From Escherichia coli (lineage in GTDB: Bacteria > Pseudomonadota > Gammaproteobacteria > Enterobacterales > Enterobacteriaceae): a stretch of 64,000 nt of DNA. Positions 6,861-48,976 of this stretch are shown in pieces. Under the pieces are notes generated by a model, which was not told the DNA's origin, did no database searches, and saw only the letters and a list, made by a program, of their open reading frames with translations. Numbering within the stretch: position 1 is the stretch's first letter; every line of letters begins with the position of its first letter. The stretch is from the NCBI RefSeq assembly GCF_036507355.1, contig NZ_AP027877.1; one strand, given 5' to 3'. Made by a program: the position numbers and the translations under genes.

Positions 6861-8393
6861 ATGACGCAGAAAATTGAACAATCTCAACGACAAGAACGGG
6901 TAGCGGCCTGGAATCGTCGCGCTGAATGCGATCTTGCCGCTTTCCAGAACTCGCCAAAGCAAACCTACCAGGCTGAAAAAGCGCGCGATCGCAAACTGTG
7001 CGCCAACCTGGAAGAAGCGATTCGTCGCTCTGGTTTACAGGACGGCATGACGGTTTCCTTCCATCACGCTTTCCGTGGCGGTGACCTGACCGTCAATATG
7101 GTGATGGACGTCATCGCGAAGATGGGCTTTAAAAACCTGACCCTGGCGTCCAGCTCCCTGAGTGATTGCCATGCGCCGCTGGTAGAACACATTCGCCAGG
7201 GCGTGGTTACCCGCATTTATACCTCCGGCCTGCGTGGTCCACTGGCGGAAGAGATCTCCCGTGGTCTGCTGGCAGAACCGGTGCAGATCCACTCTCACGG
7301 CGGTCGTGTGCATCTGGTACAGAGCGGCGAACTGAATATCGACGTGGCTTTCCTCGGCGTCCCGTCCTGTGATGAATTCGGTAATGCCAACGGCTACACC
7401 GGTAAAGCCTGCTGCGGCTCCCTCGGCTATGCAATGGTTGATGCCGACAACGCAAAACAGGTCGTGATGCTTACCGAAGAACTGCTGCCTTATCCGCATA
7501 ATCCGGCAAGCATTGAACAAGATCAGGTTGATCTGATCGTCAAAGTTGATCGCGTTGGCGATGCTGCAAAAATCGGCGCTGGTGCGACCCGTATGACCAC
7601 TAACCCGCGCGAACTGCTTATTGCCCGTAGCGCTGCGGATGTGATTGTCAACTCTGGCTACTTCAAAGAAGGTTTCTCTATGCAAACCGGTACCGGTGGC
7701 GCATCGCTGGCGGTAACCCGTTTCCTGGAAGACAAAATGCGTAGCCGCGATATTCGCGCCGACTTCGCCCTCGGCGGTATTACCGCGACGATGGTTGATC
7801 TGCACGAAAAAGGTCTAATCCGCAAACTGCTGGATGTGCAGAGCTTTGACAGCCACGCTGCGCAATCGCTGGCCCGTAACCCCAATCACATCGAAATCAG
7901 CGCCAACCAGTACGCTAACTGGGGTTCGAAAGGTGCATCAGTTGATCGTCTCGACGTGGTGGTACTGAGCGCGCTGGAAATTGACACCCAGTTCAACGTT
8001 AACGTGCTGACCGGCTCTGACGGCGTACTGCGTGGTGCTTCCGGTGGTCACTGCGATACCGCGATTGCCTCTGCGCTTTCCATCATCGTCGCGCCGCTGG
8101 TACGCGGTCGTATTCCGACTCTGGTGGATAACGTGCTGACCTGCATCACCCCAGGCTCCAGTGTCGATATTCTGGTCACAGACCACGGTATCGCAGTTAA
8201 CCCGGCACGTCCGGAACTGGCAGAACGTCTGCAGGAAGCGGGCATTAAAGTGGTTTCCATTGAGTGGCTGCGCGAACGCGCGCGTCTGCTGACCGGTGAA
8301 CCACAGCCGATTGAATTCACCGACCGCGTCGTTGCCGTTGTGCGTTACCGCGATGGCTCGGTGATCGATGTTGTGCATCAGGTGAAGGAATAA
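6861..8393 (+). CDS. citF: Citrate lyase alpha subunit CitF
   Basis: ORF 6819..8393 trimmed to MTQKIEQSQRQERVAAWNRR... Confidence 0.93.
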   Translation: MTQKIEQSQRQERVAAWNRRAECDLAAFQNSPKQTYQAEKARDRKLCANLEEAIRRSGLQDGMTVSFHHAFRGGDLTVNMVMDVIAKMGFKNLTLASSSLSDCHAPLVEHIRQGVVTRIYTSGLRGPLAEEISRGLLAEPVQIHSHGGRVHLVQSGELNIDVAFLGVPSCDEFGNANGYTGKACCGSLGYAMVDADNAKQVVMLTEELLPYPHNPASIEQDQVDLIVKVDRVGDAAKIGAGATRMTTNPRELLIARSAADVIVNSGYFKEGFSMQTGTGGASLAVTRFLEDKMRSRDIRADFALGGITATMVDLHEKGLIRKLLDVQSFDSHAAQSLARNPNHIEISANQYANWGSKGASVDRLDVVVLSALEIDTQFNVNVLTGSDGVLRGASGGHCDTAIASALSIIVAPLVRGRIPTLVDNVLTCITPGSSVDILVTDHGIAVNPARPELAERLQEAGIKVVSIEWLRERARLLTGEPQPIEFTDRVVAVVRYRDGSVIDVVHQVKE

Positions 8394-46011: not shown

Positions 46012-46641
46012 ATGGTCGATATGAAAACTACGCATACCTCCCTCCCCTTTGCCGGACATACGCTGCATTTTGTTGAGTTCGATCCGGCGAATTTTTGTGA
46101 GCAGGATTTACTCTGGCTGCCGCACTACGCACAACTGCAACACGCTGGACGTAAACGTAAAACAGAGCATTTAGCCGGACGGATCGCTGCTGTTTATGCC
46201 TTGCGGGAATATGGCTATAAATGTGTGCCCGCAATCGGCGAGCTACGCCAACCGGTGTGGCCTGCGGAGGTATACGGCAGTATTAGCCACTGCGGGGCTA
46301 CGGCATTGGCCGTGGTTTCCCGTCAACCGATTGGCGTTGATATCGAAGAAATTTTTTCTGCGCAAACAGCGACCGAATTGACAGACAACATTATTACACC
46401 AGCAGAACACGAGCGACTCGCAGACTGCGGTTTAGCCTTTTCTCTGGCGCTGACACTGGCATTTTCCGCCAAAGAGAGCGCATTTAAGGCAAGTGAGATC
46501 CAAACTGATGCAGGTTTTCTGGACTATCAGATAATTAGCTGGAATAAACAGCAGGTCATCATTCATCGTGAGAATGAGATGTTTGCTGTGCACTGGCAGA
46601 TAAAAGAAAAAATAGTCATAACTCTGTGCCAACATGATTAA
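46012..46641 (+). CDS. entD: Enterobactin synthase phosphopantetheinyl transferase EntD
   Basis: ORF 45871..46641 trimmed to MVDMKTTHTSLPFAGHTLHFVEF...; the longer ORF would read through the REP elements. Confidence 0.9.
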   Translation: MVDMKTTHTSLPFAGHTLHFVEFDPANFCEQDLLWLPHYAQLQHAGRKRKTEHLAGRIAAVYALREYGYKCVPAIGELRQPVWPAEVYGSISHCGATALAVVSRQPIGVDIEEIFSAQTATELTDNIITPAEHERLADCGLAFSLALTLAFSAKESAFKASEIQTDAGFLDYQIISWNKQQVIIHRENEMFAVHWQIKEKIVITLCQHD

Positions 46642-46762
46642 TTGACAACATCTGGTACGATTCGCCCGCAGCCATCACTGACTGCGGGCGAAAGTGTAAA
46701 GCAGGTGCCTTACCACTCTGACCTGACAACCGGATATGCGGGGATTGCTCCCCGCACAACGG

Positions 46763-46915
46763 CTACTTCTTCGGTTCGTAAGCGAGAACAGCCTTAAACT
46801 CAATATTACGTTCCTTTACGGTGAACTCACACAGCGAGTCTCCGACCAGAAGCGTAAATCCCAGCACCGTCAAACACAGCACTATGACTGCCACAAGGGC
46901 ATATTTCGTCAGCAT
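46763..46915 (-). CDS. hokE: Hok-family type I toxin, copy 1 (50 aa)
   Basis: [50 protein letters not shown]; GGAGG Shine-Dalgarno 8 nt upstream of the ATG. Confidence 0.85.
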
Positions 46916-46954
46916 GTTTATATTGCCTCCATGCGAAGAAGGGACTACCATCCG

Positions 46955-47020
46955 AGTTGTTGAGGCTCGGAGTGGCAGCCCCAGGATTGATAGAAATATC
47001 TCCTGGGGCTTCATCTTTCC
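46955..47020 (+). ncRNA. Expected Sok-type antisense RNA of hok copy 1 (coordinates approximate)
   Basis: Inferred from hok/sok architecture: antisense RNA overlapping the leader and upstream ATG of the hok mRNA; no promoter or ends mapped. Confidence 0.25.
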
Positions 47021-47265
47021 AGACCTCAGAGTTAACCTGAAACCGGAAAGCTTCAGGCACCCGCCGTTATCTTACCCTTCCTTAGCAAAATAGCTGTTTA
47101 TTTATACAGTGAATCCTGTTTCGGACTTCTGTCGGCAAAACTCATCATTGCTCTTAAAACGAAATCGCCCGCAGCCATCACTGACCGCGGGCGAAAGTGT
47201 AAAGCAGGTGCCTTACCATCCTGACCTGACAACCGGATATGCGGGGATTACTCCCCGCACAACGG

Positions 47266-47418
47266 CTACTTCTTCGGTTCGTAAGCGAGAACAGCCCTGA
47301 ACTCAATATTACGTTCCTTCACCGTAAACTCACACAGCGAGTCTCCGACCAGAAGCGTAAATCCCAGTACCGTCAAACACAGCACTATGACTGCCACAAG
47401 GGCATATTTCGTCAGCAT
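47266..47418 (-). CDS. Hok-family type I toxin, copy 2 (50 aa, K41R relative to copy 1)
   Basis: [50 protein letters not shown]; same SD context as copy 1. Confidence 0.85.
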
Positions 47419-47457
47419 GTTTATATTGCCTCCATGCGAAGAAGGAACTACCATCCA

Positions 47458-47525
47458 AATTGTCTGGTTTGGAGTGGCAGCCCCAGGGTTGATAGAAATA
47501 TCTCCTGGGGCTTCATCTTTCCAGA
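47458..47525 (+). ncRNA. Expected Sok-type antisense RNA of hok copy 2 (coordinates approximate)
   Basis: Same inference as for copy 1. Confidence 0.25.
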
Positions 47526-47848
47526 CCTCAGAGTAAACCTGAAACCGGAAAGCTTCAGGCACCCGCCGTTATCTTACCTTTGCTTAGCAAAATAGCTGTT
47601 TATTTATACAGTAAGTCCTGTTTCGGACTTCTCACTCCCCATTTGATCAACTGAAGCTGAACCCGTTTTTTTCTGCATGCCTCAATCGTCAAAATTCTTC
47701 GCCACCAGCCAGCCGTGCCATAACTTGTCACATTGCAAAAGTAGCCAATTTGCTTCAGTCACCATCACCAAAAAAAGAAATATTCCAGAACTTCCGCATC
47801 TCGCCCAGCCGCTCCGACTTCTATACTGAATAGAAAACGCCAACATAA

Positions 47849-48976
<1,128 letters not shown>

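Follow-up and report, generated by a model that had tools for sequence, protein, structure and literature searches.

In the 64,000-nucleotide stretch of Escherichia coli DNA analysed here (the window), fepA and entD, both on the plus strand, are followed by two direct repeats and then by ybdK, again on the plus strand. entD ends at 46641, ybdK starts at 47858, and the names of these two flanking genes are backed by the annotation of homologous E. coli records. The repeats are hokE/sokE units with their hok genes on the minus strand: unit 1, proximal to entD (46662..47130, 469 bp), and unit 2, proximal to ybdK (47165..47632, 468 bp), separated by a 34-bp spacer (47131..47164; TTTCGTTTTAAGAGCAATGATGAGTTTTGCCGAC in the hok sense) that, by inspection, is unlike either outer flank of the array. 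An earlier note on this DNA had proposed two tandem, diverged hok/sok-type loci between entD and ybdK; repeat alignment, Pfam, Rfam and identity to K-12 hokE/sokE all agree with it, while its figures of about 480 bp for the unit and 33 bp for the spacer give way to the lengths measured above. A repeat search resolves two pairs of blocks, 46662-46960 versus 47165-47463 (96% identity) and 46964-47130 versus 47466-47632 (95%), with a period of 503/502 bp. Pairwise alignment of the units, as that note had asked, finds 23 substitutions and one 1-nt indel, the scattered differences and single indel it had described, and the homology stops abruptly at both ends. A 469-bp repeat at 95% identity cannot have arisen by chance. 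No IS element touches unit 1 or unit 2, again as first noticed, and both copies may be active in this strain.

Each unit holds the parts ascribed to it at the outset, namely a 50-codon Hok ORF, a Shine–Dalgarno sequence (SD), an upstream ATG and a 3' GC hairpin. The toxin ORFs of the ORF list, hokE-1 (46763..46915, minus strand) and hokE-2 (47266..47418, minus strand), encode 50 amino acids each and are preceded, 8 nt upstream, by GGAGG. When the two are compared, K41R proves to be the sole residue difference (K41 in Hok-1, R41 in Hok-2), as previously stated. The HOK_GEF profile (PF01848) matches Hok-1 at E=2.5e-8 over residues 5-46 (model 1-42/42), and both peptides match the family; NCBIfam HokA and Hok-family models match with E values of 1e-10 to 1e-13, under their curated cut-offs. 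At loci 98.7% identical to that of the window, PGAP uses the name HokE. From copy to copy the hok coding sequence differs by five synonymous substitutions and a single conservative one (dN 0.009, dS 0.145, dN/dS 0.06), and dN/dS is 0.13 over 24 distinct hok coding sequences, a pattern of substitutions that places both toxins under purifying selection. The CUUACGAA context at Tyr46 is kept in both copies (46775-46782 and 47278-47285, minus strand); in K-12, hokE mRNA has been detected and found to be 40% A-to-I edited at the TadA site, turning Tyr46 into Cys (PMC12214031). The HokE coding sequence was the previously characterised toxic control of a drop assay in which 42 of 45 homologs were toxic (bioRxiv 10.1101/2025.08.07.668861). 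The second Hok of O157:H7 has L18P in its membrane helix (locus L002, 1267-1419), a change absent from the window, and copy 1 of strain ECE204 (locus L009, 551-703) combines G25R with a recombinant target hairpin where both covarying pairs are broken into A-C mismatches; these are possible cases of decaying copies.

Leader, antisense RNA and messenger fold

The Rfam model RF01794 ('sok antitoxin') matches both units over its full length (model 1-157; 86.5 and 80.2 bits, for a gathering score of 59), at 46907-47062 and 47410-47564 on the minus strand, each match ending at the hok AUG. Taking the strand of this match as proof of the orientation of Sok was considered and rejected: the model fits the hok-sense leader, and the curated sokE of K-12 lies on the opposite strand. 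By its sequence, the match is leader homology, and the strand of Sok is not readable from it. A strict sigma-70 consensus scan returned no promoter in the region, the Sok promoter falling under its threshold, and for this reason promoters were placed by homology to the 5' end of K-12 SokE. The predicted SokE-1 RNA (46959..47018, plus strand, 60 nt) and SokE-2 RNA (47462..47520, plus strand, 59 nt), their ends taken by homology to K-12 sokE, would each be driven by a promoter read from the sequence as TTGCCT-N17-TACCAT (46923..46951 and 47426..47454, plus strand). This predicted promoter lies 7 nt upstream of the Sok +1 as mapped by homology and agrees with the consensus at 8/12 positions; its -35 hexamer and the hok SD, which is on the opposite strand, overlap. 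The segment shared by the Sok promoter and the hok SD is nearly invariant (pi 0.004 over 30 units); the hok promoter itself is weak and uncertain. In both copies Sok is predicted to fold into a single-stranded 5' tail of ~9 nt followed by a terminator-like hairpin.

On the minus strand, the hok mRNA would start near GGCGGGUGCC, at 47065 in unit 1 and 47567 in unit 2, with the upstream mok AUG at 47014 and 47516, respectively. The mok-like leader ORF of unit 1 (46763..47014, minus strand) has 83 codons and, like that of K-12, shares the hok frame; that of unit 2 (47448..47516, minus strand) has only 22 codons because a 1-nt deletion shifts its frame, and from its UAG it is 4 nt to the anti-SD CCUUC and 29 nt to the hok AUG. 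Besides the 83 codons of unit 1 and K-12 and the 22 codons of unit 2, other alleles have 62 codons (frame +1) or 17. Since both frame and length vary in this way, the leader peptide shows no conservation at the protein level. PGAP draws, antisense to the hok leader, a 'hypothetical protein' of ~89 residues (e.g. WP_009008364.1) at 46821-47093 and 47239-47595 on the plus strand, and likewise at 685-954 of locus L003 and 1188-1457 of locus L007. ORFs of the WP_009008364.1 type are flagged as frameshifted or with an internal stop in many genomes; the reading frame is probably spurious, because it tracks the leader indels.

The Rfam structure and RNAalifold delineate the Sok-target hairpin in each messenger: CCACUCCGAG-CCUCAACAA-CUCGGAUGG in hok-1 (46948..46975, minus strand), of a variant class called alpha below, and CCACUCCAAA-CCAGACAA-UUUGGAUGG in hok-2 (47451..47477, minus strand), of class beta, which holds the 1-nt deletion. 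Over 21 distinct leaders, RNAalifold finds pairs 99:113 and 101:111 of this hairpin to be compensatory, G-C in unit 1 and A-U in unit 2, and in the consensus fold of the same 21 leaders the predicted pairing of the anti-SD CCUUC with the hok SD GGAGG is invariant. The ends of the messenger are predicted to meet as well. In the minimum free energy (MFE) folds of both units an 11-bp helix joins nt 1-11 with nt 356-366 (unit 1) or 355-365 (unit 2), pairing a tac-like 5' element (GGCGGGUGCCU at 47055..47065 in hok-1; 47557..47567 in hok-2; minus strand) with a fbi-like 3' element, AGGCACCUGCU in either copy (46700..46710 and 47203..47213, minus strand). Beyond fbi, an inverted repeat forms the 3' terminal hairpin of unit 1 (46662..46691, minus strand), 30 nt, GC-rich and without a T-run; the counterpart of unit 2 (47165..47194, minus strand), also 30 nt, is followed by TTTCGTTTTA, a T-run that comes from the 34-bp spacer. 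The terminator scan called the hairpin of unit 2 as the only terminator-like site and passed over that of unit 1. As for the loop of the target, the indel (46961-46964 versus 47464-47466) removes from unit 2 the U of CUCA, a YUNR-like loop motif, and the K-12 target loop (CCCGAAC) is likewise without a YUNR-like U. In plasmid R1, U-turn loops speed the binding of Sok.

The region is very probably a two-member tandem of the chromosomal hokE/sokE type I toxin-antitoxin system, an old array of variable copy number for which Escherichia annotation already exists. By homology with R1 hok/sok and K-12 hokE/sokE, we infer how transcription, processing, repression and toxicity would unfold in this strain. 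Transcription of the minus strand of each unit would yield a hok mRNA of ~400 nt, closed at full length by the tac-fbi helix and with its hok SD paired to CCUUC. Once the mRNA is trimmed at its 3' end, the leader would be free to refold, and ribosomes starting at the mok AUG would then open the hok ribosome-binding site. The plus-strand promoter lying over the hok SD would produce a Sok RNA of ~60 nt, whose 5' tail would anneal to the target hairpin and to the start of mok; translation would thereby be blocked and the duplex marked out for RNase III. Hok, once made, would enter the inner membrane and be toxic. RNase III-dependent double-stranded RNA has been reported for mokC/sokC, not for hokE. 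The likeness to R1 hok/sok extends to the Hok/Gef toxin, the Sok tail and hairpin, the leader ORF, tac-fbi, the sequestered SD and RF01794. Unlike the plasmid-borne system, the window units are chromosomal and in tandem, and their mok either shares the frame of hok (unit 1) or stops short of hok (unit 2), whereas in R1 mok overlaps hok out of frame.

Divergence of the Sok tail and its possible meaning

The differences between the copies are unevenly spread: 8/24 cluster at unit positions 163-177, which correspond to 46954-46968 in unit 1 and 47457-47470 in unit 2. Across 30 units, drawn from 18 sequences (the window and 17 genomes), pi reaches 0.215 at positions 155-172 against ~0.03 elsewhere, and these 18 nt encode the 5' tail of Sok together with the 5' arm and loop of its target. 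At least four discrete classes of this segment recur, at differing array positions in different strains, in a census that counts genomes rather than independent events and whose figures clonal inheritance inflates: alpha, CCGAGCCTCAAC, as in window unit 1 (1,411 genomes, 1,417 places); beta, CCAAACC-AGAC, as in window unit 2 (1,097 genomes, 1,100 places); gamma, CTACCTACCCAAACCTGAAC, as in unit 2 of AH01 (2,374 genomes, 2,380 places); and delta, CCAAACCCGAAC, as in K-12 (2,249 genomes, 2,259 places). Searches for beta and delta were run at 1e-13, since variants cross-matched at E<=1e-11. Within a genome, pairs of the same class are rare, about 25 of ~2,958 extra copies (<1%), where random pairing would give ~27%.

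The copies could all the same be fully redundant, either Sok silencing both hok mRNAs, so that the tandem would be a gene-dosage variant devoid of insulation. This is given somewhat less than an even chance. It draws on the near identity of the copies over 45 of the ~60 nt in which Sok and hok are complementary, and on the high predicted stability of full-length non-cognate duplexes (-101 and -113 kcal/mol, where the cognate ones have -124 and -121). Against it stand the clustering of differences and the peak of diversity in the Sok 5' tail, the scarcity of same-class pairs, and the energies predicted for the first 22 nt of Sok, which drop from -50.0 (cognate) to -31.7 kcal/mol for Sok1 on hok2, with a smaller change, from -48.2 to -42.5 kcal/mol, for Sok2 on hok1. 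There is a precedent: OrzO and OrzP discriminate their targets experimentally by 3 nt (PMC3919570). The two copies may be partly insulated from each other. In its strongest form, the array might be made of mutually insulated toxin-antitoxin modules, with selection for Sok/hok pairs that do not cross-react; this reading draws on the diversity hotspot, on the hairpin kept by compensatory changes and on the rarity of shared variants within a genome, and we hold it to be rather unlikely. Were it true, the locus would be a natural system in which the specificity of antisense RNAs diversifies after tandem duplication.

Type I systems are known to occur as tandem duplicates (PMC2887945). The zorO-orzO/zorP-orzP, ldrABC/rdl and ibs/sib pairs are likewise duplicated toxin/antisense pairs within one intergenic region, with toxins of other families. 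The zor/orz pairs discriminate through a few nucleotides at the 5' end of the small RNA, as SokE variants are here only predicted to do. In the literature no description of insulation between hokE/sokE copies was found. The divergence hotspot in the Sok tail, together with variants that neighbours rarely share, is possibly the one new point of this analysis; the tandem itself is already known, annotated and in print.

Another account has one or both units as relics, defunct as toxin-antitoxin systems; the likelier candidate is copy 2, whose truncated mok would leave hok translation uncoupled and silent. It is unlikely on balance, yet a real possibility. The 22 codons of the unit 2 mok, against 83 in unit 1 and K-12, the variation of mok in frame and length among alleles, the missing U in the target loop of unit 2 and the lack of strong promoters in the strict sigma-70 scan would all fit decay, and so would the behaviour of chromosomal hokA/B/C loci, which do not mediate post-segregational killing as summarised in a passage of bioRxiv 10.1101/2025.08.07.668861. 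However, the 22-codon allele is common to many lineages and species (O157, ST131-like, E. whittamii, SCPM), where the other elements are intact, and the unit 2 mok stops so close to the anti-SD that the hok SD could still be freed by a ribosome terminating there. Purifying selection on Hok-2, with its five synonymous changes to one conservative, and the compensatory changes that keep the target hairpin point the same way, as do tac-fbi, the SD, the Sok promoter and the TadA editing motif, all intact.

Copy number, age and the K-12 locus

Queried with 378 nt of the unit, 5,407 of 5,426 complete E. coli genomes give matches, at 8,365 places in all, with a median of 2 and a maximum of 4 units per genome. 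In an evenly spaced sample of 60 records, 27 have one unit, 30 two and 3 three. This survey of one versus two copies, called for in the earlier note, runs against the rarity of the tandem implied there: two units, found in about half of the 5,426 genomes, are the commonest state, annotated by PGAP and described in print. The junction of the window, as a 67-mer, is present in at least 1,448 of these genomes, a lower bound that covers this junction variant. Tandem counts rely on the 67-nt junction and 378-nt unit queries; queries of 1.4 kb and 181 nt merged the halves of single-copy loci and were dropped. PGAP records 'hokE x2' in many genomes, among them O157:H7, O121 and ST131-type. In the adherent-invasive strain NRG857c, hok-2.1 and hok-2.2 are a hokE-homolog duplication, 504 bp apart, described by Bustamante and Vidal (PMC7232551), and islets of 2-6 account for 10% of Hok genes (bioRxiv 10.1101/2025.08.07.668861). 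The duplication of NRG857c and the 'hokE x2' of O157:H7 are the same tandem as that of the window, with the same ~503-bp period and junction, and differ in allelic detail alone. Among complete RefSeq E. coli, no genome matches the whole 46500-47900 interval at 99% or more; the best, O157:H7 PV15-279, is 98.7% identical to the window over 1.4 kb. Taken by itself, unit 1 has a 100% match in strain PapM-32-1. The tandem finding as such matters little, being a known annotated module in its commonest arrangement.

The arrangement is not confined to E. coli proper. E. whittamii has a tandem at the same locus with 33/34 spacer positions identical, when the 3' end of its entD is just 84% identical, and two units are also found in Escherichia sp. 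MOD1-EC7003 and in the divergent 'E. coli' SCPM-O-B-8794 (entD 91% identical); E. albertii and Escherichia sp. E1V33 have one. The array is old, as judged from a dS of 0.145 between copies and from these tandems in other Escherichia. Divergence of ~5% likewise upholds the statement that this is not a recent exact duplication. The spacer being unlike the outer flanks, loss of a unit by recombination would account for single copies more simply than the opposite course would. A recent duplication of one hokE locus, or an artefact of its assembly, which tandem repeats of ~500 bp would make conceivable as a classical cause of assembly collapse or expansion, has next to no chance of being right and is refuted by the divergence of the copies, the unique 34-bp spacer, an identical junction in so many complete genomes, the share of them with two units and the tandems of E. 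whittamii and other Escherichia species.

At the same entD-ybdK position, K-12 has a single hokE next to IS186, as the earlier note had it: its curated record gives sokE at 607733-607792 (minus strand), hokE at 607836-607988 (plus strand) and IS186B at 608007-609351. Aligned to K-12 hokE/sokE, a check proposed in the earlier note, the window units show 95-96% DNA identity, with 95.6% for unit 1 over unit positions 1-390, and by position and sequence they are the hokE locus, orthologous to K-12 b4415. K-12 hokE/sokE (b4415/b4835) shares with them the locus, the Sok promoter, the mok AUG, tac/fbi, the 3' hairpin and the toxin bar 1-2 residues. It differs in having one unit, split by IS186, and a Sok-tail/target variant, delta, unlike either window copy. 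IS186 cuts the K-12 unit at positions 379-390, parting the body of the mRNA from fbi and the 3' hairpin. This IS186-cut single copy is a minority form, and K-12 is ill suited as a reference for the biology of chromosomal hok loci: one to four hokE units without IS186 are present in most natural E. coli, and the regulatory elements are complete in the units examined.

The insertion point of IS186 lies inside the GC-rich hairpin of the 3' untranslated region, GCGGGGAGUAAUCCCCGC, with a target duplication of ~12 bp, GGGAGTAATCCC, and the whole K-12 unit persists, split across both sides of the element. Unit 2 of the window is a mosaic, its upstream part like gamma-class units and its beta leader like O157 unit 2, which points to recombination within the array. 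In some strains, such as FDAARGOS_1266 (locus L011, 1-1493), two genes for SDR-family oxidoreductases, not entD, adjoin the hokE array, a sign that DNA between entD and the array was inserted or replaced. Strain 2020CK-00188 (locus L012, 999-2472) displays three tandem hokE units with three Sok-tail variants, beta, alpha-like and delta.
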